A model generated the notes under the pieces. That model was not told the DNA's origin, did not search any database, and saw only the letters and a list, made by a program, of their open reading frames with translations. The translations under genes and the position numbers were made by a program. A DNA stretch of 44,747 nucleotides from Escherichia phage TR3. Below, in pieces: positions 19,660 to 44,747 of the stretch. Within the stretch, counting starts at the first letter, position 1, and every line of letters starts with the position of its first letter. The stretch lies in the sequence record PP069512, one strand, 5' to 3'.

Positions 19660-19685
19660 CCCCGCCTCCGCGGGGTTTTTGTTTT
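19660..19685. terminator. bidirectional terminator
   Basis: CCCCGC-CTCC-GCGGGG hairpin then TTTTTGTTTT; tailspike stop lies in the T-tract. Confidence 0.7.
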
Positions 19686-22248
19686 ATATTGGATAATTAG
19701 ATACCTTGATGTCAGAAAAAATTGTTGTTCCGGTAAGCGCAGAATCAGCGTCAGATGCAGCTGCCGGAGCTAAAAGTATTTCAACCGCAGCACAATTCGC
19801 ATTAGTCACTGCATATATAAGAGACTTCAATTCCCATGACGAGTTAGGAACTAAAGGTCTGTAAGTATTAACCAGTGCAGCTCCAGATGAATCAAGTTCT
19901 CTGAATATCACAGAGGCGACACTCGAACTACCACTTAGAACATACAAATCAAGATAAACCCAACCTTTTGTCGACGCAAGAATTGTAGCAACACTAAGAG
20001 ACTGAATGCTGGCCCTATTTTTGTCGTTCAATGTAAACGCATATCCGGTTCCCAGGGGCCACGAAGCGCTATCGGTTTTTTCTGGATCAGTGCTTTTGAC
20101 ATTTTTTAACAGTCTGTCGTAATTTAAGTAATTTGGTTTTACTACAGAGTATGGTTTGTTCCCATGGTATGTTATTGAACTGCTAGATACCTTTGTTTTA
20201 CCGTTATTATTATTGACAACGCCTGATAATGTTACATTGTGGCCTGTAGCGACATTGAGGTCATAGGAGTTGTCGTACGACATAGCGGAACCTTGCGTGT
20301 TATCGGTAGGTACTATCTCAGCGAGCGTAGTACCGTCTATTCTACCGCGAACCAGTTCCCATGACACCGCCGCGCCGTTGCAAAACTTAGCCCACACACC
20401 ATCAACAGTGCAATGTGATGTATTTACTAACCTAATGGCACTGTTGTTAACTCGTTCAATACTCGCTGAAAGGATATTTATATAGAGACTTTGATGGTAA
20501 TTAGTTTCGCTTGGATACTTATAATCCGTCACGAAAAGACCTGCTTGACCTGCCCGTGAAGCAGGTGACGCACTGTATCGGAAGCCCTCAATTGTTATAT
20601 GCTCTCCCTGTACTTCCAGGTAGTTCTTTGTGGTCTGGGATGCCCCCGTCTGTACACCTTCGTTTGAAGAAGTGAATACCCCATAGCTAGAACCATCAGT
20701 ACTATGGTGGCAGTCATTCATATCGTATGTTTGACACCCATCAATAATCCAATGCTCACAACCACGCTTAAGATCTGCCAGGGTTCGGTGGCCATTGGCC
20801 GTACTATTACGACATACAATATTTTTAATTGTGTACGTTCCGTAAGGCCCTGGCGCGTCAATAGTTCCATTCATGCATTTGAATGCGTTGAATCCAATCG
20901 CAGTAACTGTTGGGTCTGTACCCTCAGACGAGCAGTTAATATAGCGTATACCGTCAATCTTCCCACCACCTGTGGTATAGCCTTCCCACGCCTCATGAGG
21001 GCAATTTTTAAAGTGACAACCGTTAGCCTCTATATCACGGATAATATTACCGACACCGTCACTGTGCCAGCAAAAAGCGCGAATCAGGTTTTCGGATGGA
21101 GTTGAATACCCACCCTGATACTGACCGTCAAATCCGATATTCTCCAGGCGCGCGAAGGTTAGCCCCGTGGCTGGGTTCTTTCTGGAAAACCAGGCATACA
21201 CACTACCATAGTTACCAGAATACGCAGCACCTAATGCAGTTCTCGTCAGGGTTAATGGTTTGATTGTAGTGTTGAACCTTCCGTTGGATTTCCAGTGGAA
21301 AAAATCTCCAACTCTGACCATACCAGAGAAAACAACCTCTTCAATGCCACTAAAATCTATTGGTAAGCGAAGTGACTCTGATAGATCCTGTATCTCTTGG
21401 ATTATAGAAGAACAATCAACCCCGCTAACAACACCGTATAGTTTTGCTGAAATCACGCCAGAAGAGGATGCGAAATTCCCTATGTGTAACGCTCCTTTTT
21501 CAGATGCAAGCTCACTTCTCAAAGCAGCATCGCCAACACTAACCCACGCCCCTAATTCAATCCCACCAGTGCTATCTGGGGTTGAACCACCTGGAAACGT
21601 CTTTGGCAATGATCCAGTCCATATATAAGACTTAACATCGCTTCCATTGACGTATAAAACCTGCTGATTTTTAGACTCTAGCGTTCCTCCATCTGAGAAG
21701 TTTAAAGTTAATGACCCAGACACAGAATTTGCCGCTGCCTCTGCTCTATCGGCGGCAGATGATGCATTGGTAGCGTTAATTTGTGATGATGATACATCAT
21801 TTGAAACCTGTGTTGCATCACTTGAAACCTGCGCACCAATAGAAACAACATCACCATGCTGAGTGTTTACCTGAGCTACCTTCGATTCAAAATCCGCAGA
21901 GTCAAAGTTGTTAAAAGCATCAACGGCATCTGCAACTTCTGTTTCTCGAGACTGATAATATCGAAGCGTTTCAGCAACATCCTGAGCCAAACCCTGAACG
22001 GTAATCCCATCGTGTGCAAGAATCGCGTAACCAGTTCCGGCAGGAACAGTTTCAGAATTAGGATTATAAACATTAACCTGAGTGTCGCTGATAATTTCTG
22101 AGATAGTGTAAATCTGTACTGGTTCAGTTTTGAAAACAATGGTAGCACCAATGCGAATCAGTGTAAGCGGCGCTTTCCATGTCGTTCCTACGCCAGTTAC
22201 CTCGCCATTCGCGGCTAGCGATGCTGTTCCTAAGTCATAAATTGCCAT
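19684..22248 (-). CDS. tailspike / tail fiber with probable beta-helix polysaccharide depolymerase domain
   Basis: 854 aa from ATG 22248 (RBS GGAGA); Gly/Asn/Thr/Ser-rich repetitive beta-type composition; N-terminal adaptor-like segment. Confidence 0.65.
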   Translation of the reverse strand: MAIYDLGTASLAANGEVTGVGTTWKAPLTLIRIGATIVFKTEPVQIYTISEIISDTQVNVYNPNSETVPAGTGYAILAHDGITVQGLAQDVAETLRYYQSRETEVADAVDAFNNFDSADFESKVAQVNTQHGDVVSIGAQVSSDATQVSNDVSSSQINATNASSAADRAEAAANSVSGSLTLNFSDGGTLESKNQQVLYVNGSDVKSYIWTGSLPKTFPGGSTPDSTGGIELGAWVSVGDAALRSELASEKGALHIGNFASSSGVISAKLYGVVSGVDCSSIIQEIQDLSESLRLPIDFSGIEEVVFSGMVRVGDFFHWKSNGRFNTTIKPLTLTRTALGAAYSGNYGSVYAWFSRKNPATGLTFARLENIGFDGQYQGGYSTPSENLIRAFCWHSDGVGNIIRDIEANGCHFKNCPHEAWEGYTTGGGKIDGIRYINCSSEGTDPTVTAIGFNAFKCMNGTIDAPGPYGTYTIKNIVCRNSTANGHRTLADLKRGCEHWIIDGCQTYDMNDCHHSTDGSSYGVFTSSNEGVQTGASQTTKNYLEVQGEHITIEGFRYSASPASRAGQAGLFVTDYKYPSETNYHQSLYINILSASIERVNNSAIRLVNTSHCTVDGVWAKFCNGAAVSWELVRGRIDGTTLAEIVPTDNTQGSAMSYDNSYDLNVATGHNVTLSGVVNNNNGKTKVSSSSITYHGNKPYSVVKPNYLNYDRLLKNVKSTDPEKTDSASWPLGTGYAFTLNDKNRASIQSLSVATILASTKGWVYLDLYVLSGSSSVASVIFRELDSSGAALVNTYRPLVPNSSWELKSLIYAVTNANCAAVEILLAPAAASDADSALTGTTIFSDIKVSNYPI

Positions 22249-22271
22249 TGTGTAAAGTCTCCATATGTAAA

Positions 22272-22317
22272 ATAGCACGAATTGCTAAAGTGGATTGTAG
22301 CATCTTTCAGGTATAAA
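22272..22317 (+). promoter_or_regulatory. orphan promoter box on + strand between two leftward genes
   Basis: ATAGCACGAATTGCTAAAG at 22272-22290; TATAAA at 22312-22317 (24-bp spacer); no downstream + strand gene. Confidence 0.35.
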
Positions 22318-22321
22318 AAAA

Positions 22322-22335
22322 CCTCCCGAAGGAGG
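22322..22335 (-). terminator. terminator of primase gene (minus strand)
   Basis: CCTCC-CGAA-GGAGG hairpin with A-tract on + strand; abuts primase stop. Confidence 0.55.
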
Positions 22336-23310
22336 TTAGCTGTTCAATAAATCACTTGCCTTATATATCTTCTTCCTGATTCCGCTCTTGAATGAGTATT
22401 CATCATTTGGTATTACCACATCAAGATTCCTCTCATCAGCAACGCAAAGCAATTCCCTATCAAGATAGCAAGCAACTCTTAACTTGAAATCTTTGAGTGC
22501 GTAAGCAACCATCTCCATGTTGTAGCTAGAGTGGCAAACAAGTACACATCGGTTGCCAGTAGCAAGATGAACACGAATACCATCAATCCAATTATCCACA
22601 AGATAAGCGTACTCATCACTTTTAAAGGAACCAATAACAGCAACTGACTGGCGTGTGTAATATTTTGCAGCATAACTAACATCTCCCTCCTCGTTAATAA
22701 ACATTACATTGCACATTTCTTCTGATATACCGTCACTATAAACCATAAAGCACGGTATTGCGTGTATTATTTCACCGGATTTTGTCCTGCCAACATCAAA
22801 ACCAAACTCGCTATAGATACCCTCGTATGTACTGAGCGGGGTTGATTCTACTCTTTCAGTCCTCTCCATTATCTCTAAGCATCTCTCGTGGTCAATTTGA
22901 GCGCCCATTTTGTAGAGCTTGGTTCTTGATGCTTGCTTGTTTGCCTTGTTAACAACCTCAACAGGGATAAGGCTTAACCACTCACCGAGAACATCGATAC
23001 ATTCACTAAATGACTCACCTCGCATTTTCTGGACCCAAACAACACCATCTCCTGAACCGCATTGGTTGCAGATAATTCCACCATCACCATCTTCGCTAAC
23101 CTTATTAGTCCATCTTGCGCGATCGTTGCCGCCGCAATAAATGCACGGCTGATGCTTTTTGGTCTGGAAAAACTTAGGGTCAGCGCCGCAGATGTTGATA
23201 AGTGCTTTATCCCACAGGCCGCGCATTCTTGGTATAACTTCTTTCTTATCGTAGTGCATATCAATCTGTCTCTTAACAAATAAAAAAAGGATGTACCGAT
23301 TATGGCACAT
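22336..23310 (-). CDS. DNA primase (zinc-ribbon type)
   Basis: Zinc-ribbon motif CIYCGGNDRARW...CNQCG near N-terminus; start may be internal Met at 23259. Confidence 0.65.
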   Translation of the reverse strand: MCHNRYILFLFVKRQIDMHYDKKEVIPRMRGLWDKALINICGADPKFFQTKKHQPCIYCGGNDRARWTNKVSEDGDGGIICNQCGSGDGVVWVQKMRGESFSECIDVLGEWLSLIPVEVVNKANKQASRTKLYKMGAQIDHERCLEIMERTERVESTPLSTYEGIYSEFGFDVGRTKSGEIIHAIPCFMVYSDGISEEMCNVMFINEEGDVSYAAKYYTRQSVAVIGSFKSDEYAYLVDNWIDGIRVHLATGNRCVLVCHSSYNMEMVAYALKDFKLRVACYLDRELLCVADERNLDVVIPNDEYSFKSGIRKKIYKASDLLNS

Positions 23311-23318
23311 CCCATTCT

Positions 23319-23792
23319 TTACTCTTTAGCTTTTCGTGCTGCCTCGTTGGCGGCCTTAATCTTACGCCATGATCGACACTCTGGCTTGGTGGCTAATTCA
23401 GCTTCGGTAACCACGCGCAGCATATGACGCTTTTTGCAACGTAGTGTAAGAGGCTTGCCGTTACCGTCGAATTGCAGGTCTGGTCGGCAGAATGTAGCTC
23501 GAAAACCTTCTCCGGTTCGTTTGTAGTAGTTGTGCGACAGCTGAGCACCACGCGCAGAAATCATACCACGATTGAACCATTCTTCTACAGTTTGGGGAGT
23601 TACCTTTAACTGCTTTGCGATGTTTGCCTTTGTTCCGAAGAAATCAAGGAGCATCTCAAGCCGTGCGCGTAACCCTGCCCTTACCTCGTCTTTTAAAACG
23701 TAGTAGCCTGAAGGTCGTTTCCGTTGTTTTTTGTCTTCAGTGCGGATGGTTCCGTTATTACCGTTAGTGGTTCGCTTGTCAACTGCACTCAT
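23319..23792 (-). CDS. basic HTH DNA-binding protein
   Basis: HTH-like segment TKANIAKQLKVTPQTVEEWF; ATG 23792 with RBS GAGGT (track start 23828 lacks RBS). Confidence 0.55.
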   Translation of the reverse strand: MSAVDKRTTNGNNGTIRTEDKKQRKRPSGYYVLKDEVRAGLRARLEMLLDFFGTKANIAKQLKVTPQTVEEWFNRGMISARGAQLSHNYYKRTGEGFRATFCRPDLQFDGNGKPLTLRCKKRHMLRVVTEAELATKPECRSWRKIKAANEAARKAKE

Positions 23793-34832: not shown

Positions 34833-34914
34833 ATTATTGATGTGAGGGTGAATGAATGGTGGATGGACTACCATACAAGTTGATTTTTATTCTGGCCGAG
34901 CCATTTTGCCGCAT

Positions 34915-35070
34915 ACACGTAACCGGCGTAGCGCGATGTAAGCCAACCACTATCGTTACGCGAGTTACGCGAAGCTACGCCTAGACTTACACTATAAGTA
35001 CTTAATATATATATATATCTTCTTTCTATTATTATTATTATTATTATTATTATTGTATGTAAGTCATGTA
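34915..35070. repeat. non-coding control element, copy B (ACACGTAACCG box, GTTACGC repeats, (TA)7 and (ATT)8 microsatellites, TCATGTAACT)
   Basis: Paralogous to 16840..17001. Confidence 0.6.
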
Positions 35071-35324
35071 ACTGGTGCTCTTCTGCTATATATATGTTTT
35101 TTCCTATCAGAGTACATATCTGCAATTTTATGGAAGAAATAGCCAGTATTGGGCAACCCCACCCAATTTATGCGTTACAGGCGTTACCACAAACTACATT
35201 TAGCTATAGCTTGGCTAGGATGCCATTTCGCGTAACCACACCTAAAAGTTACCAAAAATTACACTTGATTACGTGTGTAAGTCGATATATGATGGATTCA
35301 ACCTAAACGAGAGGAGTGATAAAC

Positions 35325-35804
35325 ATGAATGAGAAAGCAACATTGGGTCAAGTGATTCGCGAGATGGTAAAACAGGCTCTAAAATCTGAAGATAAGCAAT
35401 TCAGCGTTTCACTAAGGAAAATTGAAAGCATTATTGGCAGTGAAGATGGTTCCATTAAGAAGCTTAAGAGCTCATACATCTACAACACAACAGCTCGCAT
35501 GCCTGAGTTGAGAGACGCAGGTATGAAGGCGACTCACTACTATGATGAAGATAGCGGCAAAAGCCAATTCGGCGTGACAGAGCTATCAGATGGCAAGAGG
35601 CTGGTTATCAAACTGATCCCTGGAACTGCCAACATTGGTATCAGGAAGAAGACCAATGACGCAATCAAGGTGGAGGCAATAACTGAATTCAAGGCTAAGA
35701 TATCGAAAGTCATGCCAGACCTATCGGAGTATGAAGGTGAAGCGCTCGCAGCAGCAATGAAAGCAATTAAAGATTATCGTTTGATTATTGAGGAGATTAA
35801 ATAA
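35325..35804 (+). CDS. hypothetical protein (159 aa)
   Basis: ATG 35325 with RBS GAGGAG (track start 35316 is GTG). Confidence 0.55.
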   Translation: MNEKATLGQVIREMVKQALKSEDKQFSVSLRKIESIIGSEDGSIKKLKSSYIYNTTARMPELRDAGMKATHYYDEDSGKSQFGVTELSDGKRLVIKLIPGTANIGIRKKTNDAIKVEAITEFKAKISKVMPDLSEYEGEALAAAMKAIKDYRLIIEEIK

Positions 35805-35845
35805 TGTTTAACTTTAACGATGACAAACTAACAGCATAGCAGGTA

Positions 35846-36328
35846 ATGAATATCGCCAGGCAAGATGGACTTTCGCCAGTCAGAATCGTAATAAATGCAA
35901 ATGGGTATCGTCAGTCAACGCCATTCTGGGGTTCGATTGATACGTCAGATGTGTACTCAGGTGATGAGCTTGGTGTGCTAATTAAAATCATCAGGAAGAT
36001 GGGAGTTAACGGGAAAGGAGTGGTTGGTGTCAGGTCTGTATATGAAGGAGCTCGAAAGGTTAAGCCTTTTGTTGGGCGTAATGGAGTGATGTTGCTCATC
36101 AAGGACAAGCTAATCCCAGAGCTCGACAAGATGAATGTTACATGTCTAATTGGCGATAAGGTTTATGTTCACCCCGCAATACTCAATGAGTGTTGGGAGC
36201 CTAACTTCAAGGTCTACGAAGGTAAGCATCCTAGTAGACTACCATACCACTTGCGGTACAGCGAGGAAGAGGTTGAGGCGGCGATGGAGTTTTATCGGGA
36301 AGCTAAATTACTCCTGAATGGACAATAG
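35846..36328 (+). CDS. truncated paralog of the P-loop NTPase (N- and C-terminal regions only; amber-interrupted leader at 35804..35839)
   Basis: Residues VINANGYRQS and GKGVVGVRS..KVKPF..CLIGDK match ends of the 31662..33245 protein; upstream in-frame MFNFNDDKLTA-TAG matches that protein's N-terminus MFDFNEDKLSVE. Confidence 0.55.
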   Translation: MNIARQDGLSPVRIVINANGYRQSTPFWGSIDTSDVYSGDELGVLIKIIRKMGVNGKGVVGVRSVYEGARKVKPFVGRNGVMLLIKDKLIPELDKMNVTCLIGDKVYVHPAILNECWEPNFKVYEGKHPSRLPYHLRYSEEEVEAAMEFYREAKLLLNGQ

Positions 36329-36368
36329 CACGAATTGCTAAACAATCGCCGGAGAAATCCGGCATAAT
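36326..36368 (+). promoter_or_regulatory. phage promoter box (ATAGCACGAATTGCTA, 22-bp spacer, CATAAT)
   Basis: TAG of box is stop of upstream gene; spacer holds hairpin GCCGGA-GAAA-TCCGGC. Confidence 0.5.
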
Positions 36369-36399
36369 TACCACATCGACAACACGATGGAGTATAGAG

Positions 36400-36609
36400 A
36401 TGAGAATAAAGATTATTGAAGTTGACATTGCTGATGGTGACGAACTTAGCCTTGCTGATTGCGGTTTCCAGGTTGGTGATATTGTTGATGTTTCCGGTAA
36501 GTATAAAGATGGTAGCTTATCAGTTCAGGCGATTCGTGATACTGATTTAGTAACAATCGGCAACGAGATTAGTTTGCAAGAAGGCGAATACGAGGTAATT
36601 GAAGAATGA
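36400..36609 (+). CDS. hypothetical small highly acidic protein (69 aa)
   Basis: RBS GGAG; Asp/Glu-rich. Confidence 0.5.
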   Translation: MRIKIIEVDIADGDELSLADCGFQVGDIVDVSGKYKDGSLSVQAIRDTDLVTIGNEISLQEGEYEVIEE

Positions 36610-36785
36610 GATTCCGACAATCAGAACCAAAACTTCAGGCTAACCACTCCGACGGCTACGCAACATTCATCATTGCTCAGGCTTGCGGAATGCGTGACGA
36701 ACCTCAAGTTCACACCATCCACTTAACAGAAGAGCAAGCTAGAGAACTGGCTTACGAAATTCTTGAGCAATTGAACAAGATTTAA
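36606..36785 (+). CDS. hypothetical small protein (59 aa)
   Basis: Not in track; ATGA coupling. Confidence 0.4.
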   Translation: MRFRQSEPKLQANHSDGYATFIIAQACGMRDEPQVHTIHLTEEQARELAYEILEQLNKI

Positions 36786-36795
36786 GGAAAACAAG

Positions 36796-36930
36796 ATGCA
36801 CACGGAACTTATGATTGACGAGGTTTTAGTTGAGGCTTTACCATGGTTGTTGTGGTCTCTGGGCTTCGCGATTATTTACATTATTTCGGCAGCCGTAGAC
36901 GATGCTAAAACGCATTCTAACGAACTATAA
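36796..36930 (+). CDS. small membrane peptide (44 aa)
   Basis: Not in track; RBS AAGGAAA; hydrophobic core LPWLLWSLGFAIIYIISAAV. Confidence 0.4.
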   Translation: MHTELMIDEVLVEALPWLLWSLGFAIIYIISAAVDDAKTHSNEL

Positions 36931-36948
36931 TTTAAGGCATGCGATTAG

Positions 36949-37107
36949 ATGGATAACTACGAAAAACCAAGCCAGTGGGCTAAGAGAATGATGGATGATG
37001 CTGAGACTGGCGAGATTGCCATGATGTACTTTGAGTTAATGAATATCTGGAAAGAGCGTGAGGAAAAGCGTGGTCTAAATAAGGGCGAGGATAAGAAAAA
37101 TGCTTAA
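36949..37107 (+). CDS. hypothetical small protein (52 aa)
   Basis: Not in track; weak RBS. Confidence 0.3.
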   Translation: MDNYEKPSQWAKRMMDDAETGEIAMMYFELMNIWKEREEKRGLNKGEDKKNA

Positions 37108-37258
37108 CACATGTTTATTCCCGAAATGTGATGAATTTGTTGAGGATTTAATCTACTTCAATGAGAAATACGGTGACACGTTTGAGTGCGATGGCGATAC
37201 AGACGAAGTATTAGCAACTTTTGATAGAGGGCCAGATGTAGACAGCACGAATAGCTAA
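37100..37258 (+). CDS. hypothetical small protein (52 aa, ends DSTNS inside promoter box)
   Basis: Not in track; overlaps previous ORF by 8 nt. Confidence 0.35.
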   Translation: MLNTCLFPKCDEFVEDLIYFNEKYGDTFECDGDTDEVLATFDRGPDVDSTNS

Positions 37259-37285
37259 ACGTGACAGGCATTGATGCCATATAAT
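37242..37285 (+). promoter_or_regulatory. phage promoter box (ACAGCACGAATAGCTA, 22-bp spacer, TATAAT)
   Basis: Spacer holds palindrome GGCATTGATGCC. Confidence 0.5.
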
Positions 37286-37314
37286 CAACCAATCAAACAA
37301 CGAGAGGGCAGAAA

Positions 37315-37551
37315 ATGTTTGGATTAGAAGATGCATACTTCAACGCAGTTAAGCACCAGGCTGACAAGCTGAACGACGAGTACGGAAAGTTGGGCGCAAA
37401 GAAGAAAGACGATAAAGTTGTCGCAGCACTGATTACTCAGGTTTGGGGTCCTGTGTCTACGCTAATTGCGAGGGATAAATTTGTGTGGATAGCTGGGTAT
37501 AGAAAAGGTCGCGTTGACCACGATGAGAATGGGAATAGCCTTTATGAATAA
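37315..37551 (+). CDS. hypothetical protein (78 aa)
   Basis: RBS GAGAGGG. Confidence 0.5.
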   Translation: MFGLEDAYFNAVKHQADKLNDEYGKLGAKKKDDKVVAALITQVWGPVSTLIARDKFVWIAGYRKGRVDHDENGNSLYE

Positions 37552-37780
37552 GATCAAGTCACTAATGTTTAAGGTCGGAATTCTACATAAGCATAAATAT
37601 AGATTATTCCGACGCATAAGTTGGTTTGAGGATTCGTATCAGGATGGGTGTAGGACAAAGCTAATCTGTACAGTTTGCGGGAAGATTGTTAACTCAAATG
37701 TTGACCTAATGGTTTGTAAAAGCACGCTGGATTTCGTTAGGTATGAAAAAGAGATTGCATCACTGACAGGAAAGTATTAG
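37544..37780 (+). CDS. hypothetical protein with zinc-ribbon-like Cys pairs (78 aa)
   Basis: C..CTVCGK...C pattern; start chosen at Met overlapping upstream stop. Confidence 0.45.
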   Translation: MNKIKSLMFKVGILHKHKYRLFRRISWFEDSYQDGCRTKLICTVCGKIVNSNVDLMVCKSTLDFVRYEKEIASLTGKY

Positions 37781-37979
37781 TATTTATCTCGTAGGCATAC
37801 GAGCTAGCCAAGCTAGAACGGCGCACGGAGCGCAACACAAAGTCCATTGCTAATTAAGTAGCGTACATGGCAAGTTGGCCAAAGAGGATAAGGCGCAAAC
37901 CTCAATAACCGGTCGAGAAACTCGACGCTGGAGGCGTAACCAGCAATCTTTAAATAGCGCAATCGCTACTTAAATATTT

Positions 37980-38055
37980 GTTCTGCTGGCGTAACAGGAT
38001 AACGCAAAGACCTCCTAAGTCTTAGTTGCTGGTTCGAGTCCAGCGCGGAACACCA
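37980..38055 (+). tRNA. tRNA-Arg (anticodon CCU), CCA encoded
   Basis: Hand-folded cloverleaf: acceptor GTTCTGC/GCGGAAC (one G-U), D stem GCGT/ACGC, anticodon stem AAGAC/GTCTT with loop CU-CCU-AA, T stem GCTGG/CCAGC with loop TTCGAGT, discriminator A + CCA. Confidence 0.85.
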
Positions 38056-38071
38056 ATAAAGGAGATTCATT

Positions 38072-38254
38072 ATGTGGGATGTTAAGCTTTCAATCCGCTT
38101 AATGGGTCGAAGCTGTAAGAATTGTCAGCAAGAATTTATCGCGTCGGTTACCGCTGAGTCCTCAGAGGAAGCGGTAGCGAAAGTAAAGGTAATGTCTGGT
38201 GCCGACCCGGATTACCACAAATTCCTAGTAACTTACGTTCGTGAGCGAAAGTAA
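38072..38254 (+). CDS. hypothetical small protein (60 aa)
   Basis: RBS AAAGGAG; Cys pair C..C; followed by terminator. Confidence 0.55.
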   Translation: MWDVKLSIRLMGRSCKNCQQEFIASVTAESSEEAVAKVKVMSGADPDYHKFLVTYVRERK

Positions 38255-38307
38255 AAGAAGTTCTACTCTCTGGTTGTTTCATCTCTCTCGTTGTTGTTCG
38301 ATAATTC

Positions 38308-38330
38308 GCCCTCTTCTTGAGGGCTTTTTT
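38308..38330 (+). terminator. intrinsic terminator
   Basis: GCCCTC-TTCTTG-AGGGC hairpin then TTTTTT. Confidence 0.7.
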
Positions 38331-38342
38331 ACGTCTGTAATA

Positions 38343-38351
38343 TGGTATAAT
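38343..38351 (+). promoter_or_regulatory. extended -10 promoter (TGGTATAAT) for packaging operon
   Basis: TGnTATAAT about 25 nt upstream of TerS ATG. Confidence 0.5.
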
Positions 38352-38376
38352 CTTACATCAACAAAGGAGGTCACAA

Positions 38377-38901
38377 ATGAAAGACGAAAACTTCACCAGC
38401 CAGGCGCAAGAAAAGATTCGCTCTGGCAACTTCAAAGCCATGTACAACAAAAAGTATTCTGACATTACAACTCTGTCCAAAAACCGAATAATGACCCCAG
38501 AGCAGCTATTCGACCTGGCCGTGAAATACTTCTCATGGGCTGAGAGCCAGGCAATCAAGGCAATTGAGACAGCCAGCTTCCAGGGTGTCGTAACCGAGAA
38601 TCTGGTGCACAAGCCACGAGTCTTCACACTAACAGGATTCTGCCTTTACTGCGGTGTTACCCATAGCGCAATAGAGAAATGGAGGAAGTCGGAGGGTTAT
38701 GACGAGGTAATTGCATTCATTGATTCCGTGATTCGCGAGCAGAAGTATCAGCTGGCAGCGTCTGGCATTGTTAACCCTGGCATGATTTCCAAAGAACTTG
38801 GCATCGATAAGCCGCAGGAGATTACTATAAGCAATAACTCTTCAGCTAACGACGTTGGCACGATGAAGGAAGCGCTGGAGTCTGTGATTAGTAAGCTGTA
38901 G
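38377..38901 (+). CDS. terminase small subunit (putative)
   Basis: 174 aa immediately upstream of HNH and terminase large subunit; RBS AAAGGAGG. Confidence 0.55.
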   Translation: MKDENFTSQAQEKIRSGNFKAMYNKKYSDITTLSKNRIMTPEQLFDLAVKYFSWAESQAIKAIETASFQGVVTENLVHKPRVFTLTGFCLYCGVTHSAIEKWRKSEGYDEVIAFIDSVIREQKYQLAASGIVNPGMISKELGIDKPQEITISNNSSANDVGTMKEALESVISKL

Positions 38902-38941
38902 CACTTTTTGTTAAAAGAAGAGGCCCAATCAATGAGATAAT
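38899..38941 (+). promoter_or_regulatory. phage promoter box (TAGCACTTT-TTGTTA, 22-bp spacer, GATAAT)
   Basis: TAG of box is TerS stop; -10-like sits in loop of GGCCCA/TGGGCC inverted repeat. Confidence 0.5.
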
Positions 38942-38969
38942 GGGCCCAACAAACTAGCGAGGTGATCAT

Positions 38970-39476
38970 ATGAATTGGCATGATATTTTTGAATATAGAG
39001 ACGGGCTTTTAATAAGAAAGGTAAAAGTAGCAAATGTATCAAAGGTTGGAGAGGTGGCCGGAAGAGTTGATAAATTTGGCTATGTGATACTAAAGTATAG
39101 ACAAAAAGCATACAGGTGTCACAGGGTGGTGTGGGAGATGCACAATGGAGCAATCCCTAAAGGCATGCACATAGATCACATAAACCAAAATAGAAGTGAC
39201 AATAGAATAGAGAACTTAAGGTTAGTAAGCAATAAAGAGAACTCAAATAACAGATCACTATCATCAAGAAATAAAAGCGGAATAAACGGTGTAAGCTGGT
39301 GCAAAAGAGAGAATAGATGGCTTGTTCAGGCTAGAGAGTTTGGTAAAACAGTCTTCATATGCTACAAGGACACTATAGAGGAGGCTGCATTGGCAAGGTC
39401 GCAGTATGACAAATTGAACGGATATCATGAAAATCATGGCTCTGAAAATAAAGGCTACCTAAATACGAGAGCGTAA
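38970..39476 (+). CDS. HNH homing endonuclease with AP2-like domain (paralog of 394..990)
   Basis: HNH motif HIDHINQNRSDNRIENLRLVSNKEN; AP2-like SGINGVSWCKRENRWLVQ; shared DTIEEA segment with 394..990; RBS GAGGTG. Confidence 0.85.
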   Translation: MNWHDIFEYRDGLLIRKVKVANVSKVGEVAGRVDKFGYVILKYRQKAYRCHRVVWEMHNGAIPKGMHIDHINQNRSDNRIENLRLVSNKENSNNRSLSSRNKSGINGVSWCKRENRWLVQAREFGKTVFICYKDTIEEAALARSQYDKLNGYHENHGSENKGYLNTRA

Positions 39477-39478
39477 CA

Positions 39479-41050
39479 ATGAGTGAATTAATAGTCTGGG
39501 ATGAACTGACTCACGCTGAAAAGATGGCTATAAAGGCAATCTCTGAGCATAGTTTCGAAGGGTTCTTGCGGTGCTTCTTTCAGATAACGCAAGGCGAGAG
39601 ATTCAAAATGAATTGGCATGCTAAATACCTTTGTCGTGTCATAGATGAGATTCTTGATGGTAAGAGAAAGGATACCATCATAAACGTAGCTCCTGGATCA
39701 GCCAAAACCGAGCTCTTTAGTATACATTTCCCTGTATATAGCATGATCAAGATTAAGAAGGTTAGAAATCTTAGTTTGTCGTTCTCTGACTCATTGGTTA
39801 AGCGTAACTCAAAGCGTGTGCGCGACCTGATTAAGTCAAAGGAGTTTCAGGAACTTTGGCCTTGCTCATTTGGGACTTGCAGGGATGATGAGATTCAGGT
39901 TCTAGATGAAGATGGAAAGGTGAGGTTTGAATCGATATCTAAGGCAATGGCTGGACAGGTGACTGGTTCGCGTGGTGGTTACATGACCGATGATTACAGT
40001 GGATGCATAATGCTTGATGACCCGCTGAAGCCAGATGATGCGCTTAGTAATGTAAGGAGGGAGGCTGTTAATATGCTTCTCAAGAACACAATTCGCTCAC
40101 GAAGGGCGAGTTCAGTTAAGGGAAAAGAGACTCCAATATTAGCCGTTCAGCAAAGGCTTCATGTTCTTGACACTAGTCACTTCATGGAGTCCGGGCAGAT
40201 GGGGATAAAATTCGACGTAGTTAAAATTCCAGCAATAGTCACGGAAGAATACGCCGACACGCTTCCTGAATGGATTAGGCAGCAGTTTATAGATGACGTT
40301 CTTTCTTCGCCATTTGTAGAGCGCGATGGGGTTAAGTATTACAGCTACTTCCCAGCAAAGGAATCAATAGAAGACTTGATAGCCATGCGTGATGCTGATC
40401 CTTACACATTCCTTAGTCAATATGCTCAGGAGCCTGTAGCTCTAGGTGGCAACCTGATTAACGTAGACTGGCTCCAGCGCATTAGTGACACCCTGCGACC
40501 GCCAGCTAAGTACGATTACAGGTTCATGACGCTTGATACCGCGATGACCACTAAAAGCTACAGTGACTTTAGTGTACTGCAACTCTGGGGCTATAAGGAT
40601 GGCAAGATTTACCTGTTAGACCAGCGACGTGGTAAATGGGAGGCGCCAGAGCTAGAGGCAGAGCTATTAGACTTCGAGAGGATGGCAAGGGCATCCAATC
40701 AGACAGATGGTATCCTTCGTAAAATCATCATCGAGAAGAAAGCATCTGGTATAGGTCTGATTCAATCAGCAGGAAGGGTTATGCGAACGCCTATCGAGCC
40801 ATACGTGCCAGATAACGACAAGCTGACTCGCGTAATGAGTGCACTTCCTCAGATTAAGGCTGGCAACGTTATCCTGCCGGAGTCAGCAAATTGGCTTAAC
40901 GGATTGCTAACAGAGATTGCAGCATTTACGGCAGATGATTCTCACTCGCACGATGACCAGATAGACTGTTTGACGATGGCTGTCAACCTGGTACTGAACA
41001 TCGCAGAAGACCCTAAAGCGAGAATGATGCGATTAGCAGGAATTAAATAA
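39479..41050 (+). CDS. terminase large subunit
   Basis: 523 aa; ATPase-type N-terminal region (VAPGSAKTE) and C-terminal nuclease-type region; position before portal. Confidence 0.8.
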   Translation: MSELIVWDELTHAEKMAIKAISEHSFEGFLRCFFQITQGERFKMNWHAKYLCRVIDEILDGKRKDTIINVAPGSAKTELFSIHFPVYSMIKIKKVRNLSLSFSDSLVKRNSKRVRDLIKSKEFQELWPCSFGTCRDDEIQVLDEDGKVRFESISKAMAGQVTGSRGGYMTDDYSGCIMLDDPLKPDDALSNVRREAVNMLLKNTIRSRRASSVKGKETPILAVQQRLHVLDTSHFMESGQMGIKFDVVKIPAIVTEEYADTLPEWIRQQFIDDVLSSPFVERDGVKYYSYFPAKESIEDLIAMRDADPYTFLSQYAQEPVALGGNLINVDWLQRISDTLRPPAKYDYRFMTLDTAMTTKSYSDFSVLQLWGYKDGKIYLLDQRRGKWEAPELEAELLDFERMARASNQTDGILRKIIIEKKASGIGLIQSAGRVMRTPIEPYVPDNDKLTRVMSALPQIKAGNVILPESANWLNGLLTEIAAFTADDSHSHDDQIDCLTMAVNLVLNIAEDPKARMMRLAGIK

Positions 41051-41062
41051 GCGTGATAAACT

Positions 41063-41086
41063 AGCCTCTTAAATGGGGCTTTTTTA
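41063..41086 (+). terminator. intrinsic terminator / attenuator
   Basis: AGCCTC-TTAAAT-GGGGCT hairpin then TTTTTTATTGGAG. Confidence 0.5.
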
Positions 41087-41099
41087 TTGGAGCAAGAAA

Positions 41100-42374
41100 A
41101 TGGTAAAAGCAGATTCATACGCCACGCAGTTCCTGGGTGGAACTAGTGATGGTAGCGAGATTTACGGGCAATTCGGCAACACTTACCTTGCGCCACCATT
41201 CGCCGATTCACTTTACGTGTCTAACTCACTGGTTCGCCGCATCGTCGATACCATCCCAGAGACAGCAATCGCCGCAGGTTTCCATATTGATGGCATTGAT
41301 AACGAGGGTGAATTCTGGTCAAGGTGGGATTACCTAAAGGTCAACGAGTCAATCTCTGACGCATGGTCATGGGCGAGGTTGTTCGGCGGCTCAGCTATTG
41401 TGGCTATCGTTAAGGATAATCGTGCGCTAACTAGTCCGGTACGTGAAGGTGCTGAACTTGAATCGCTTCGAGTATACGATCGCAGTCAGGTGAGGGTGCA
41501 AGCGAAGGAGGAGAATCCTCGCAATGTTCGATTTGGAAAACCACTAACGTACCGCATAACACCTGAAGGTAGCTCCACGTTTTATGATGTGCATTACTCT
41601 CGAGTTCACATTATGGATGGAGAGAAGATTCCTAGCTCATTGCGTCTCGGCAATGATGGGTGGGGTGCTAGCGTTCTGGTTCCTGACCTACTGGAGGCAA
41701 TCAAGGATTATCAGACGTGCGAGAAACTGGCAACCCAGTTATTGCGCCGTAAGCAACAGGCGGTATGGAAGGCGAAGGGGCTTGCTGAATTGTGTGACGA
41801 CGCAGAAGGTTTTGGTGCGGCAAGGTTAAGGCTGGCTCAGGTTGATGATAATTCCGGCGTTGGTCGCGCGATTGGTATTGATGCAGAGTCTGAAGAGTAC
41901 AGTGTTCTGAACTCGGATATTGGTGGGATTGATGGATTCCTGGATAAGAAATTCGACAGGATTGTTGCTCTGAGTGGTATTCATGAAATCATCCTCAAAG
42001 GCCGTAACGTTGGTGGTTTGTCATCAAGCCAAAACACAGCATTGGAGACATTCCATAAACTAATCGACCGCAAGAGAAATGAAGAATTACTCCCTGTTCT
42101 TGTTTTTTTAATCCCGTTCATCACAACCGAGCAGGAATGGTCAGTTGAGTTTAATCCGCTAGCTCAGGAATCGAAGAAGGACCGCGCTGAAATACTGAAG
42201 AATAACGTTGATTCAATCGCCACTCTCATCACTAACGGAGTAATGGACGCAGATGAAGCACGAGATACCTTGCGCGCATTAGCCCCTGAGGTTAAGATTG
42301 GTGAAGGTTCGATTGTAACTGAGCAGCCCGCACAAGAAGAATCACCAAAAGAGGAGATTGTAATTGAAAGCTAA
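41100..42374 (+). CDS. portal protein
   Basis: 424 aa directly after terminase; ATG 41100 with RBS GGAG (track start 41073 lies inside terminator hairpin). Confidence 0.75.
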   Translation: MVKADSYATQFLGGTSDGSEIYGQFGNTYLAPPFADSLYVSNSLVRRIVDTIPETAIAAGFHIDGIDNEGEFWSRWDYLKVNESISDAWSWARLFGGSAIVAIVKDNRALTSPVREGAELESLRVYDRSQVRVQAKEENPRNVRFGKPLTYRITPEGSSTFYDVHYSRVHIMDGEKIPSSLRLGNDGWGASVLVPDLLEAIKDYQTCEKLATQLLRRKQQAVWKAKGLAELCDDAEGFGAARLRLAQVDDNSGVGRAIGIDAESEEYSVLNSDIGGIDGFLDKKFDRIVALSGIHEIILKGRNVGGLSSSQNTALETFHKLIDRKRNEELLPVLVFLIPFITTEQEWSVEFNPLAQESKKDRAEILKNNVDSIATLITNGVMDADEARDTLRALAPEVKIGEGSIVTEQPAQEESPKEEIVIES

Positions 42375-43476
42375 AATTCGTTATGACAGTGCAAAAGTTA
42401 AAGCGCGATTTGACGAAAACGGATTCCTGGTAGATACACCTGTGGTTGCTCGCGTAGGCGTGCAATCATACTACCTGCCAGATGGCTCGGAACGACGCGA
42501 ATTTAGGCCAGCTTCAGAGGTCTTTAAAGCTGATTCTCTTGCAAGTTATCAGGGCAAGCCGATTACCTTAGGCCACGTGTTTGTTAACGTTGATAATGCC
42601 AAGCAGGTAGTTGTAGGCTCAGTGTCTGGCTCAGCAATGCGTCAGGATTCGAACGTGGTAGTTCCACTAACCGTTTACGACAAGGAATCAATCGAGAAAG
42701 CTAAATCTGGCATTGCCGCCGAGTTATCTGTAGGCTACTCGACTGTTGATGTTGAGTCTCCAGGTTGGGGGAGTAATGAGACTGGTGAATACAAGTTGGA
42801 TGGTGATTACGAGTCCCAAGATGAAATTCCACCTGACTGGGTTCGTTTTGATGCACTGCAAACTAACATTATTGTTAATCACGTTGCAATGGTATACAAA
42901 GGTCGCGCAGGTGTTGCAAAATTGAATATGGACGCAGAACAGGAAAACCCGTATACTGACAGCGTTGATTCTATTAAAGAGGATGTTAAAGAAATGGTTA
43001 AGATTAAACTGGATGGCGCCCAGGAGTTCGAAATCGCTCCAGAAGTTGCCGCACACATTGAAGCTATTAAAAAAGATGCAGTTGACGCTAAAACCAAAGC
43101 CGACTGCATTGAAGCTGAGCGTGATGCGCTGAAGGCTAAAGTAGACGCGATGCCTGCTGAAATCGAGAAAGCCGTTAAAGCTGCTAAAGCCGACGCTGAA
43201 GCACTTGCCGCTCTGGTTACTGTAGCCGCAGAGGTTGGAATTAAGACTGATGGTCTGGATGCTAAAGGCATCAAAGTAGCTTACGTTAAAGAAGTTTCCG
43301 GCCTTGATGTTGCTGATAAATCCGACGCATACATCGACGCAGCGTTCGACATTGCCAAGGATTCTGATAAAATGGCTGAAGTTCGTAAAGCTACCGTAGC
43401 TTCCGACAAATCTGACAAAGCTGACGAACCTAAGAAATTAGACCCACGTGCTCGTCTGGCTAAAATTAAAAAGTAA
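42364..43476 (+). CDS. putative head maturation protease / scaffolding protein
   Basis: TTG start with strong RBS AAAGAGGAG 7 nt upstream, overlapping portal end; Ala/Lys/Glu/Asp-rich coiled-coil C-terminal half. Confidence 0.5.
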   Translation: MKAKIRYDSAKVKARFDENGFLVDTPVVARVGVQSYYLPDGSERREFRPASEVFKADSLASYQGKPITLGHVFVNVDNAKQVVVGSVSGSAMRQDSNVVVPLTVYDKESIEKAKSGIAAELSVGYSTVDVESPGWGSNETGEYKLDGDYESQDEIPPDWVRFDALQTNIIVNHVAMVYKGRAGVAKLNMDAEQENPYTDSVDSIKEDVKEMVKIKLDGAQEFEIAPEVAAHIEAIKKDAVDAKTKADCIEAERDALKAKVDAMPAEIEKAVKAAKADAEALAALVTVAAEVGIKTDGLDAKGIKVAYVKEVSGLDVADKSDAYIDAAFDIAKDSDKMAEVRKATVASDKSDKADEPKKLDPRARLAKIKK

Positions 43477-43487
43477 GGAGATAGATA

Positions 43488-43982
43488 ATGGCAATTCGTT
43501 CTGTAGCTCTGGCAGGTATGGTAGCTGATACTTCCCTGTATAATATCGATGGTGCTTGTGTGGTTGGTGGTACTGCTGCCACTAGAATCCCGGTTGGAAC
43601 ATTCGTAGGTGTTAGCACCGCTCAGCCAGTAGATGGTCACAAGGTTGTTGCCCTTCCGGCTATATCAGGAACTGCAATTAAACCTTACGGCGTTGTTGTT
43701 AAATCTCATTATGAGACTCCAGATGGTCAGGCTCGCGGCCTTGAGGCAGTTAACGTAATGACTTCTGGTCGTATTTGGGTTCGCACTACTCTTGCAGCTG
43801 CTCCGGCATTTGGTGACAAGGTTTTCGTAAATGAAAGTGGCGTTGTTGCCGCTAAAGTGGGACGTTCTACCTGGGGAACTGGTTTCACATTTGCTGGTGG
43901 CTATGTATCAGCTAGTGAAAGCGTTGATGGCGCACTGGTTGAAGTTCAGCTGATTCAATCCGCAGACTCAACTGTGGCTTAA
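43488..43982 (+). CDS. putative head decoration / accessory capsid protein
   Basis: 164 aa with strong RBS AAGGAG between scaffold and capsid genes; followed by terminator. Confidence 0.45.
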   Translation: MAIRSVALAGMVADTSLYNIDGACVVGGTAATRIPVGTFVGVSTAQPVDGHKVVALPAISGTAIKPYGVVVKSHYETPDGQARGLEAVNVMTSGRIWVRTTLAAAPAFGDKVFVNESGVVAAKVGRSTWGTGFTFAGGYVSASESVDGALVEVQLIQSADSTVA

Positions 43983-44006
43983 CAAAATCTGAATGCACAA
44001 ATAAAC

Positions 44007-44030
44007 AACCTCCTTCGGGAGGTTTTTTTA
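44007..44030 (+). terminator. intrinsic terminator
   Basis: AACCTCC-TTCG-GGAGGTT hairpin then TTTTTTTAT. Confidence 0.7.
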
Positions 44031-44058
44031 TACCTTCCGCTTGGTCATGATAGAATCA

Positions 44059-44086
44059 TTGCGCGGTCCTCAAACTAGTGTATAAT
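44059..44086 (+). promoter_or_regulatory. candidate sigma70 promoter for capsid gene (TTGCGC-N16-TATAAT)
   Basis: Canonical spacing; about 40 nt upstream of capsid ATG. Confidence 0.45.
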
Positions 44087-44124
44087 TGACTCGTACATAC
44101 CTAACTGAAAAGGAATAAACAAGA

Positions 44125-44747
44125 ATGGCCATTAAATTTGATGCAGAACAAGCAAAAATCACCGCTCACCTAGAGCAAATGGGCGTAGATAAGGCTGATG
44201 CTGCTGGTATCTGGACCGTTAAGCAGTTAACCGCATCACTGAATCGCGCTTACGAAAAAGAATACGCAGACAACTCAGTTGTCAACATCTTCCCAGTAAC
44301 CAACGAAATCCCTGGTCACGCGAAATACTTCGAATACAATGAGTTCGATGGTGTTGGTATTGCTCAGATCATCGCTGATTACTCTGACGACCTGCCGATG
44401 GTTGATGCTTTCATGACCGAGAAGCAGGGTAAAGTATTCCGCTTCGGTAATGCGTTTATGATCTCAGTTGATGAGATTAAAGTTGGCGCTGCTACTGGTC
44501 AGTCACTGTCCGCTCGCAAACAGGCTTTGGCTTTTGAAGCTCACGACAACCTGCTTGATAAACTGGTATGGTCTGGCTCTGCACCTCACGGCATCGTAAG
44601 CGTATTTAACCAGCCGAACATCAACAACGTTGTTGCAACTCCAAACTGGAGCAATCCAATTAACGCGGTTAACGACGTTACCGCAATGATTGATGCTGTA
44701 GAAACCAGCACACAGGGCTTCCACCATGTAACTGACATTCTGCTGCC
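44125..44747 (+). CDS. major capsid protein, N-terminal part (3' end beyond window edge; continues in 2..322)
   Basis: Open frame from ATG 44125 to window end (207 codons); RBS AAAAGGAA; not in ORF track because no stop is reached. Confidence 0.6.
   Translation, partial: MAIKFDAEQAKITAHLEQMGVDKADAAGIWTVKQLTASLNRAYEKEYADNSVVNIFPVTNEIPGHAKYFEYNEFDGVGIAQIIADYSDDLPMVDAFMTEKQGKVFRFGNAFMISVDEIKVGAATGQSLSARKQALAFEAHDNLLDKLVWSGSAPHGIVSVFNQPNINNVVATPNWSNPINAVNDVTAMIDAVETSTQGFHHVTDILL

Follow-up and report, generated by a model that had tools for sequence, protein, structure and literature searches.

The DNA analysed here is a stretch of 44,747 nucleotides (nt) of Escherichia phage TR3 (sequence record PP069512), referred to below as the window. 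It carries a gene for a transfer RNA, tRNA-Arg with the anticodon CCU, which is located between a row of same-strand small open reading frames (ORFs; 35316-37780) and the terS, HNH and terL genes that start at 38377. An earlier note, made by reading the sequence alone, had placed the gene in the same position, between the early small-gene cluster and the packaging operon. The tRNA is preceded by a structured RNA element, the leader, and is followed by a gene encoding a protein of 60 amino acids (aa), ORF60. The sequence from 37755 to 38330 reads as one self-contained unit consisting of a promoter, the leader of about 190 nt, tRNA-Arg(CCU), ORF60 and a terminator (Table 1). Positions 37000-39500 are 99.7-100% identical to the Escherichia phages Rao1, CY1, TR1 and TR2, the last of which is classified as Drexlerviridae, Braunvirinae, Christensenvirus.

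Table 1. Features of the leader-tRNA-ORF60 unit and of the start of the terS region (positions in the window; RBS, ribosome-binding site)
Feature	Position	Strand	Basis
Sigma-70-type promoter: -35 TTGCAT (37755-37760), 17-nt spacer, -10 TAGTAT (37778-37783)	37755..37783	+	read from sequence
Structured leader RNA, about 190 nt, from the putative start (C)GUAGG to the base before the tRNA	37790..37979	+	homology, covariation
Hairpin B, CTAGC-CAA-GCTAG, followed by the universal AAC linker (37817-37819)	37804..37816	+	covariation
Hairpin C, GCGC-ACGGA-GCGC	37821..37833	+	RNAalifold
Hairpin D, outer stem CCAT/ATGG around GCT-AATTAAGT-AGC	37844..37870	+	RNAalifold, 100% of cells paired
Optional module E, GAGG-ATAAGGCGCAAA-CCTC	37884..37903	+	24-phage alignment
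Hairpin H, GTCGAG-AAA-CTCGAC	37912..37926	+	in 24/24 aligned phages and T1-type, stems differing
Hairpin I, GCTGG-AGGCGTAA-CCAGC, last universal hairpin, loop always ending (C/G)GTAA	37927..37944	+	all stems pair
Hairpin J, extra, long and imperfect, about 13/15 pairs, loop CAAT, abutting the tRNA	37945..37978	+	alignment, pair counts
tRNA-Arg, anticodon CCU (38013-38015), encoded CCA (38053-38055)	37980..38055	+	ARAGORN, Rfam, cloverleaf fold, alignment
RBS AGGAG (38060-38064) and 60-aa ORF60 (38072-38254)	38060..38254	+	phrog_2919
Intrinsic terminator GCCCTC-TTCTT-GAGGGC (38308-38324) and T run, closing the unit	38308..38330	+	terminator scan
Extended -10 TGgTATAAT of a separate terS promoter (terS ATG 38377)	38343..38351	+	read from sequence

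The tRNA gene is the sole tRNA that ARAGORN reports in the window (tRNA-Arg, anticodon CCT, 37980-38055, plus strand). The Rfam tRNA model RF00005 matches 37980-38052 (59.3 bits, gathering score 29, E=1.9e-10), and no other Rfam family has a match in the window. The complete cloverleaf with encoded CCA and anticodon CCU described in the earlier note is therefore recovered at the same coordinates, and both predictors accept the fold. The acceptor stem (GTTCTGC/GCGGAAC) has 7 bp including one G-U pair, and the D arm, GCGT-AACAGGATA-ACGC, has a 4-bp stem and a 9-nt loop that holds G18, G19 and A20. In the loop of the anticodon arm (AAGAC-CTCCTAA-GTCTT; loop at 38011-38017) the anticodon CCU is accompanied by U33 and a purine at position 37. 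The variable loop is AGTT (4 nt), the T arm is GCTGG-TTCGAGT-CCAGC, and the discriminator A73 is followed by the encoded CCA. The cloverleaf is the unconstrained minimum-energy fold of the tRNA alone (-24.4 kcal/mol), and compensatory change is seen in 14 of the 19 consensus pairs of an alignment of nine phage and host tRNA-Arg sequences. The identity elements of E. coli arginyl-tRNA synthetase (ArgRS) are A20, C35, U or G at 36 and A or G at 73. A20, C35, U36 and A73 are all legible in the window tRNA, and the A that follows G18-G19, A20, is invariant in all nine aligned sequences. At the sequence level the full set of identity elements is present, and in sequence the tRNA is complete as a functional arginine acceptor of the E. 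coli type.

The 200 nt upstream of the tRNA form a row of small hairpins, the folding energy of which is modestly unusual (z = -2.4). A BLAST search with 37740-37985 found homologues in 88 phage records, and the same hairpins with other stem sequences flank the UCU tRNAs of related phages. Twenty-four copies of the leader were aligned from the putative transcription start to the tRNA. The leader is modular: its length ranges between 103 and 293 nt, and its hairpins, four to nine in number, have stems of 3-6 bp. Its parts follow in the order 5' segment (AACCACGTAGAC...GAG), hairpin B, AAC, hairpins C and D, optional modules E, F and G, hairpins H and I, and an AU-rich tail. In the alignment, module E is present only in the window and in phages FP, AugustePiccard, JeanPiccard and OzMSK, and its loop motif GCGCAAA is also found in module F of other phages. 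Hairpin J is confined to five phages, namely the window, IMM-001, ES, L036 and MM01.

The helices of the leader are maintained while their sequences change. In the 5' domain of 18 Braunvirinae, 96.1% of the cells are paired, versus 17-46% when the partners are slid, and five pairs are changed on both sides, four of them among the five pairs of hairpin B. The covariation score of this domain is 0.257, versus at most 0.052 in the slid controls. The corresponding figures for the 3' domain are 80.4% versus 26-43% of cells paired, eight pairs changed on both sides and a covariation score of 0.131 versus at most 0.058; these are conservative, because one subfamily is misregistered in the alignment. 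None of 500 shuffles reaches the observed score in either domain, a statistic that is not a probability, because the sequences are related; the slide control and the multiplicity of distinct stems constitute the stronger evidence. Hairpins H and I of different subfamilies were not put in register by MAFFT, because their loop lengths differ. The formal pair counts of the 5' domain were limited to Braunvirinae, and the pan-family comparison is a hand-parsed table checked by script.

That table covers 12 representatives of four lineages, in all of which hairpins B, C, H and I pair with differing stems. Hairpin B has eight distinct stem sequences, all complementary. The stems of hairpin C in other lineages are GCATC/GATGC, GGTC/GACC, GTGAG/CTCAC and GCAGC/GCTGC, and in T1 the hairpin is GTGAG-ACGATT-CTCAC with five of five positions paired. 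Hairpin I begins with GCTGG, CCCGG, CCCGC, GCCGG, GCCGC, GCCGT or GGGGG, and every version pairs. Hairpin D shows an A-U to G-C exchange at alignment columns 67-89, and RNAalifold independently predicts hairpins B, C and D. Some elements stay invariant among the 12 representatives: GTAGAC, unpaired, at the 5' end, the linker AAC, the sequence (C/G)GTAA with which loop I ends, and a tail of the AUUCA type. The well-aligned 5' domain has 14 G-U pairs and not a single A-C pair, a sign of selection on the plus-strand RNA, and whole modules are inserted or deleted between relatives, so that no reading frame is preserved. These results show the upstream element to be a conserved, covarying structured RNA. 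The earlier note had seen several hairpins in these 200 nt and suggested a leader or a second small RNA; the suggestion was right, and it understated what appears to be a structured RNA conserved throughout the family.

No known RNA family accounts for the leader. A search of 37781-37979 with 4227 Rfam models at permissive thresholds gave no family at its gathering score, the sub-threshold matches being at chance level (c-di-GMP-I 13 bits versus 35, RsmY 8 versus 57, leuA-Halobacteria 14.5 versus 48), and the T1 homologue of the leader matched nothing in Rfam. ARAGORN finds no tRNA in the leader region, and the tRNA model, with truncation allowed, has no match at E<=10 in stretches ending after hairpin I. 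The ideas that the leader is a tRNA relic or belongs to a known riboswitch or small RNA (sRNA) family were rejected, as permissive Rfam searches gave nothing meaningful. A CsrA sponge, suggested by the GGA loops (ACGGA, GCGGA, GAGGA), was dropped because the loops of the T1 type have no GGA. A BLAST search of 5,426 E. coli genomes found no counterpart of the leader, and a literature search on T1-type phages found neither transcriptomic or non-coding RNA work nor a description of the leader. Apart from the flanking ORF and the tRNA, the table of 88 records shows nothing annotated at the leader; in the IMM-001 record, it carries hypothetical proteins. The leader is a real, apparently undescribed conserved RNA element, unannotated in the records inspected.

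One stem, GCUGG/CCAGC, is common to hairpin I (37927-37944) and the T arm of the tRNA (38028-38044), and in the minimum-energy fold of the full precursor the two swap partners to form a long-range helix. As it occurs in this phage alone and relatives lack it, this possible alternative pairing is probably incidental.

The boundaries of the unit are also conserved. The -10 element of the window promoter overlaps the stop codon of the preceding ORF. The promoter was missed by a consensus scan because its -35 is weak; the same scan found the homologous promoter in T1 and Rogue1. All 12 representatives have a near-consensus sigma-70 promoter, the end of whose -10 stands 7 nt (6 in one) upstream of the invariant GTAG, and most of them have a near-consensus TTGACN and/or a TGn. 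An intrinsic terminator equivalent to that of the window precedes terS in each of T1, Rogue1 and Rtp, and the MM01 record carries an annotated one. At the position of the terS promoter Rtp has TTGACA-17-TAGTAT.

ORF60 is conserved across Drexlerviridae, always within the leader unit, with G12, C15, C18, Q20, A28, A34 and K39 invariant. It has no Pfam family, and its entry in PHROGs (phrog_2919) is listed as of unknown function; the label 'DUF3667' given to it in some GenBank records is unsupported by Pfam. HMMER links it remotely and weakly to single DUF4379/DUF723 zinc-finger repeat units of homing-endonuclease-like proteins. The predicted fold, a confident model, is beta-beta-alpha-beta (predicted local distance difference test, pLDDT, 87) and resembles ribosomal protein eL20/LX and PurS; a fold search gave only a generic match of this topology.

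The leader occurs with and without a tRNA. A covariance model of the 5' domain, R1, detects one copy in the window (37785-37874, 99.7 bits), which is also part of the seed alignment of the model. R1 matches three relatives found through TerL that have no tRNA, L010 (E=5e-5), L012 (E=1.6e-4) and L013 (E=3.6e-3). In these phages the leader has the same order of parts and occupies the same position, about 1.3 kb upstream of TerL. Their last hairpin, GCCGC-AGACCCGTAA-GCGGC, is followed directly by an RBS and a small ORF, with the ORF60 homologue further on. By BLAST, this version of the leader belongs to phage T1 itself and to about 70 records of the Tunavirus type. In a further variant, L011, hairpin I (GGGGG-GAGTCGTAA-CCCCC) is followed directly by the ORF60 homologue, and in LF82-11 and Klebsiella phage HazelMika (Vilniusvirus) the order is leader, tRNA-Ser(GCU), ORF60. 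At least three tRNA backbones stand behind the same leader in the UCU phages (Rtp type, T145P1 type and MM01/L036 type). A scan of IMG/VR with a 16-base core pattern gave 28 loci, about 10 of them real and the rest mostly chance matches in tape-measure genes; a longer pattern worked.

In every lineage the cargo starts a few nucleotides after the tail of hairpin I. It is absent in the T1 type and otherwise consists of Arg-UCU, Arg-CCU, Ser-GCU or, in Opt-79, Arg-CCU and a second tRNA-like gene. The unit of leader and ORF60 is present in every Drexlerviridae lineage sampled, and the leader appears to be older and more widespread than the tRNA. Because lineages differ in what follows the last universal hairpin (nothing, UCU, CCU or GCU), the tRNA looks like cargo, one of several alternatives carried by an older leader-ORF60 transcription unit. 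Every cargo tRNA found in the slot reads codons of the AGN box (Arg AGA, Arg AGG, Ser AGC/AGU), an observation noted at LF82-11 (L060), HazelMika (L061) and an IMG/VR contig (L078). The second tRNA-like gene of Klebsiella phage Opt-79 (L055, 782-883) lies directly after tRNA-Arg(CCU) and is aberrant. It scores 42.7 bits with the Rfam tRNA model, has a 33-nt insertion in the D arm and an anticodon loop CAGAUAA, is called 'tRNA-???' by ARAGORN and is unannotated in the record.

The tRNA of the window is itself already known. It is annotated as tRNA-Arg-CCT in the TR1 and TR2 records and is 100% identical in TR1, TR2, CY1 and Rao1. The same tRNA is found at 93-100% identity in 36 phage records, including Rogue1, JK06, phiEB49, Sf12, Sd1 and AHP24, and at about 82% identity in four further records of the Opt-79 type. 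In Rogue1, JK06, phiEB49, Sf12 and AHP24 the identity is 93-97% and the position upstream of terS is kept; the tRNA of Rogue1/JK06/AHP24- and TR1/TR2-type Drexlerviridae is the same gene as that of the window. The Rogue1-type tRNA was published as an 'arginyl-tRNA recognizing the rare codon AGG' (PMC3496638), and Niu et al. reported one arginyl-tRNA in each genome (PMC4070988). The publications on the Rogue1/JK06/AHP24 type list the gene only and contain no codon quantification, no UCU/CCU alternation and no leader.

Annotation of this locus is uneven. The CCU tRNA is left unannotated in Rao1, CY1, IMM-001, ES, AN_ECEAS, JK06, phiJLA23, C119 and e4/1c, and the IMM-001 record places a 'hypothetical protein' over it. 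In Rtp (NC_007603/AM156909; L006, 4893-4969) ARAGORN finds a tRNA-Arg(UCU), and the hit tables for the neighbouring region show no tRNA; the gene appears to be simply unannotated. A published comparison states that Rtp has no tRNA (PMC8421802), which the ARAGORN result contradicts. The MSK paper reports 'no sRNA' by cmsearch and states wrongly that Rtp is without the tRNA. Several GenBank records lack the tRNA (Rao1, CY1, IMM-001, Rtp) or have spurious ORFs where the leader lies.

The tRNA is not a recent host copy. It has no BLAST match in 5,426 complete E. coli genomes and, given the absence of matches there, neither the tRNA nor the leader is a recent copy from the host or a prophage element. 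The anticodon and the anticodon loop (CUCCUAA) are identical to those of E. coli argW, the host tRNA-Arg(CCU), and A20, C35, U36, A73 and the encoded CCA are common to the window tRNA, argW and argU. However, the window tRNA is only 67% identical to argW and differs from it in the anticodon stem. It is closer (74%) to the UCU tRNA of Rtp, which is 82% identical to argU. The two host genes are monocistronic prophage-attachment sites, whereas the window tRNA lies within a leader-tRNA-mRNA unit.

The codon use of the phage matches its tRNA. Codons were counted in the 70 annotated coding sequences of Rao1, a proxy that is 99.9% identical to the window over the tRNA region. Among 13,241 codons there are 153 AGG (11.6/1000), which is the top arginine codon with 24% of the total for arginine, 124 AGA (9.4/1000) and 16 CGG. 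Greedy ORFs of the window itself give 12.8/1000 for AGG and 9.5/1000 for AGA, and AGG makes up 24-26% of arginine codons across both phage counts. For the host, a 50-kb sample of E. coli K-12 with 65 annotated genes, not the whole genome, gives 1.18/1000 for AGG and 1.84/1000 for AGA, with no AGG in the ribosomal-protein subset. AGG is therefore used about 6-10 times more often in the phage than in the E. coli sample. The earlier note had described AGG and AGA as common in the phage genes, the HNH and tape measure genes among them, and AGG as rare in the host; the counts bear out both statements, and an AGG frequency no higher than that of the host, which would have told against the note, was not found.

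The tape measure gene contains 23 AGG and 7 AGA. The three HNH genes (Rao1 gp12, gp18 and gp34, one of which corresponds to 38970-39476 of the window) have AGG/AGA counts of 4/12, 9/1 and 5/5. They encode 16/16, 10/11 and 10/10 of their arginines by AGA or AGG and use almost no CGN, unlike neighbouring genes. This bias fits a foreign, mobile origin of the HNH genes, which may be those most dependent on a tRNA that decodes AGR.

Relatives for an orthologous comparison were found through the large terminase (TerL): Rtp and three IMG/VR phages, all with tRNA-Arg(UCU) at the same locus. In the orthologous block, TerL plus 11.4 kb, the AGG/AGA counts are 50/17 in the CCU phage and 24/34, 22/26, 21/34 and 16/46 in the four UCU phages (pooled 83/140; Fisher p=7e-8). 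The fraction AGG/(AGA+AGG) is 0.75 in the former and 0.26-0.46 in the latter. The G-ending fraction of the control codons for Lys, Glu and Gln (AAR, GAR, CAR) is the same in CCU and UCU phages. Thus, AGG is commoner than in the host sample, and the preference follows the tRNA across relatives, L011 being the exception. The concept of a codon-compensating phage tRNA is reportedly that of Bailly-Bechet et al. 2007. The present counts support the view that codon choice tracks the phage's own anticodon, as codon-supply co-adaptation predicts, and from them we infer a supply function of the tRNA.

The observations can be combined into an explanation that is, as a whole, probable. Host RNA polymerase would transcribe the unit from the start of infection, without phage factors. 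Cleavage by RNase P at the 5' end of the tRNA (G37980) would free a leader of about 190 nt, and nucleases would shorten the 3' side as far as the encoded CCA, which lies 5 nt ahead of the ORF60 RBS, leaving the ORF60 message. Charging by ArgRS would then enlarge the supply of a scarce AGG decoder, for which the host has the single gene argW, and AGG-rich phage genes (tape measure, large terminase, HNH genes and others) would be translated faster. That the tRNA is processed and charged by the host and supplements the scarce AGG decoder is likely. The role of the leader is put forward more tentatively: it may well be a cis-acting 5' platform, although the case for this falls somewhat short of even. 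Its rapidly forming hairpins would protect a long untranslated and strongly transcribed RNA from Rho and RNase E. The invariant unpaired motifs, namely GUAGAC at the 5' end, the linker AAC, the (C/G)GUAA that ends loop I and the AUUCA-type tail, would be contact sites for a partner, which could be the protein encoded by ORF60 or RNA polymerase. The tail, single-stranded beyond hairpin I, could act as a safe, highly expressed processing point, which would explain the repeated settling and exchange of tRNAs there, and the slot would lend itself to the insertion of tRNAs and, through flanking homology, to the exchange of cassettes.

Several points weigh against this explanation. Neither AGG nor AGA occurs in the gene of 314 codons at the capsid position (Rao1 gp17), which means that the tRNA is not needed for the most abundant protein. 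In L011, where the 10 kb around TerL contain no tRNA, AGG is likewise abundant, and the codon skew could be the consequence of having the tRNA instead of its reason. A study of a relative with a Ser-tRNA reported no correlation between codons and tRNA (PMC11845039), and the literature search gave no expression, charging or fitness data for these phages. As to the leader, the thermodynamic z-scores are weak (-2.4 and -1.5), and the tests run here do not discriminate between action in cis and in trans. The leader is kept even though RNase P must sever it from ORF60, which argues against simple translational control of ORF60.

Beyond the role of a cis-acting platform, the leader of T1 and the sampled Drexlerviridae could represent a new functional class of phage RNA that works with the ORF60 protein or with host RNA polymerase, as a processive antiterminator or early-to-late switch at the start of the packaging and structural genes or as a ribonucleoprotein (RNP) acting in trans, with its tail as a landing and expression site where AGN tRNAs are exchanged so that decoding is retuned. 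This is possible and speculative. The proposal that the leader is a stable trans-acting RNA, possibly an RNP with ORF60, directed at a host or phage target, with the tRNA merely sharing its promoter, is on balance unlikely. Release would be by RNase P in tRNA-bearing phages and by RNase E at the AU-rich tail in the T1 type. Such a role agrees with the intact leader of lineages in which tRNA processing must cut it off the downstream mRNA, and invariant unpaired motifs within covarying helices are typical of RNAs with a specific fold or partner. In the T1 type, however, the element reaches an RBS 10-15 nt after hairpin I with no terminator between them; the leader runs straight into the RBS and is therefore physically a 5' untranslated region in these phages. 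Complementarity to a target was not found either, no search aimed at it having been made.

It is quite unlikely that the leader is an element for processive antitermination or against Rho that lets polymerase started at this promoter read past the terminator of the unit into the packaging and structural genes. It would be either of the put kind, in which RNA polymerase is bound by the RNA, or of the nut/rrn kind, in which a boxA-like tail comes after a hairpin. The position is suitable, as the leader is promoter-proximal, on the same strand and immediately upstream of the late gene block, and in all lineages checked it is separated from terS by a strong intrinsic terminator. The adjacent hairpins H and I are universal. 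The window tail, AATCTTTAAAT, contains TCTTTAA, which we take to be the core of rrn boxA; this core is not conserved, the tails of relatives reading ACTCATTCAAA or AACAATTCAAG, and terS has its own promoter past the terminator. The put RNA of HK022 is about 70 nt long, with two long stems arranged in a V shape and a triplex, and binds the zinc-binding domain of the RNA polymerase beta' subunit (PMC9378689). It suppresses terminators downstream. As put RNA works without staying tethered to the transcript (PMC9378689), excision of the tRNA would not preclude such a mechanism. What put, and likewise the lambda nut and rrn boxA-boxB leaders, has in common with the window leader is a promoter-proximal structured RNA with two adjacent hairpins in a phage without its own polymerase, and put also lies upstream of terminators and a long same-strand gene block. 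The leader differs from put in its length of 103-293 nt, in its four to nine short hairpins and in the lack of any sequence or Rfam model similarity; with respect to size and architecture it is unlike put, and the promoter-proximal position alone matches.

It has also been considered that the tRNA is mainly a counter-measure, replacing a host tRNA-Arg that is cleaved by an anticodon nuclease, toxin or defence system or lost in late host RNA decay, and this we regard as improbable. To our knowledge, no phage defence specific to Arg(CCU) exists. The anticodon loop is identical to that of argW, unlike the loop-mutated escape tRNAs of other phages. Moreover, the CCU/UCU switch is mirrored by the AGG/AGA preference, which is predicted by matching of supply and not by evasion of a nuclease. 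The body of the tRNA, which shares just 67% identity with argW and has another anticodon stem, would suit a replacement, as would the AGN codons read by every cargo tRNA in the slot. Precedents are the T5 tRNAs directed against the PARIS and retron systems and the host tRNA-decay model of Yang et al. 2021, as it is cited in PMC11845039.

It is barely credible that the upstream region does not function as RNA and is instead the remnant of a tRNA gene, an element acting at the level of DNA, namely an operator, origin or pac site, or a gene for a small protein. In favour of this view, hairpin H of the T1 type (GGTTGC-ATAGTGGTTAA-GCAAC) resembles a D arm, some records have short ORFs annotated over the region, and in the window a 49-aa minus-strand and a 32-aa plus-strand ORF overlap it. 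Against it, the Rfam tRNA model has no match there even with truncation allowed, insertion and deletion of modules between relatives break any reading frame, and the helices keep pairing through double changes, the 5' domain having G-U pairs and not one A-C pair. For phage TLS, the TLS paper describes a sequence of the pac type that is similar to the consensus of P22.

The arrangement proposed for the unit, a host-processed tRNA supplying a scarce decoder behind a cis-acting leader, has parallels in known systems. The tRNA cluster of phage T4 comprises eight tRNAs that are co-transcribed with the stable RNAs species 1 and 2. As in the window unit, tRNA is there derived from a longer precursor that also carries non-tRNA structured RNA, and in the E. 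coli thrU-tyrU-glyT-thrT-tufB operon the tRNA precursor is followed by a downstream protein message; the likeness is one of arrangement only. Maturation in both is by host RNase P and 3' trimming, as is proposed for the window unit. The T4 cluster has eight tRNAs and the window unit has one. The window unit differs from both systems in that its non-tRNA RNA appears older and more widespread, the tRNA is variable cargo and the leader has no Rfam similarity. GOLLD and ROOL are large ornate RNAs of 500-800 nt that often lie beside phage or prophage tRNA genes of other hosts. They resemble the leader as structured non-coding RNAs of unknown function that are physically associated with phage tRNA genes; their Rfam models, however, have no match in the window, and the leader also occurs without any tRNA.

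The tRNA alone adds little to what is known, and the window provides a clean quantitative example of a published rare-codon tRNA. The difference between CCU and UCU at one locus, with the matching preference for AGG or AGA, amounts to a natural experiment that supports the debated codon-supply explanation. The leader stands at the head of the pre-terminase unit in the sampled T1-like phages, including T1 itself, and is absent from Rfam; as the regulation of T1 is poorly understood, it is a candidate regulatory element. The site after the last leader hairpin behaves as an exchangeable tRNA slot, which bears on how virulent phages acquire and swap tRNAs, and the slot could serve for the insertion of payloads into T1-type therapeutic phages.

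Outside this region the relation of the window to Rao1 is patchy. Only 34864-44747 (9.9 kb) is 99.9% identical to Rao1, the rest being 74-98% identical or unmatched, and 15586-16740 and 19449-23322 have no match to Rao1. This makes the window a mosaic relative, and compared with the Rao1 record its sequence is circularly permuted. At about 35005-35060 there is an AT-rich microsatellite, (TA)n and then (TAT)n, in a gene-poor stretch of roughly 450 nt where the Rao1 record begins; this stretch might be a genome-end, origin or promoter region.

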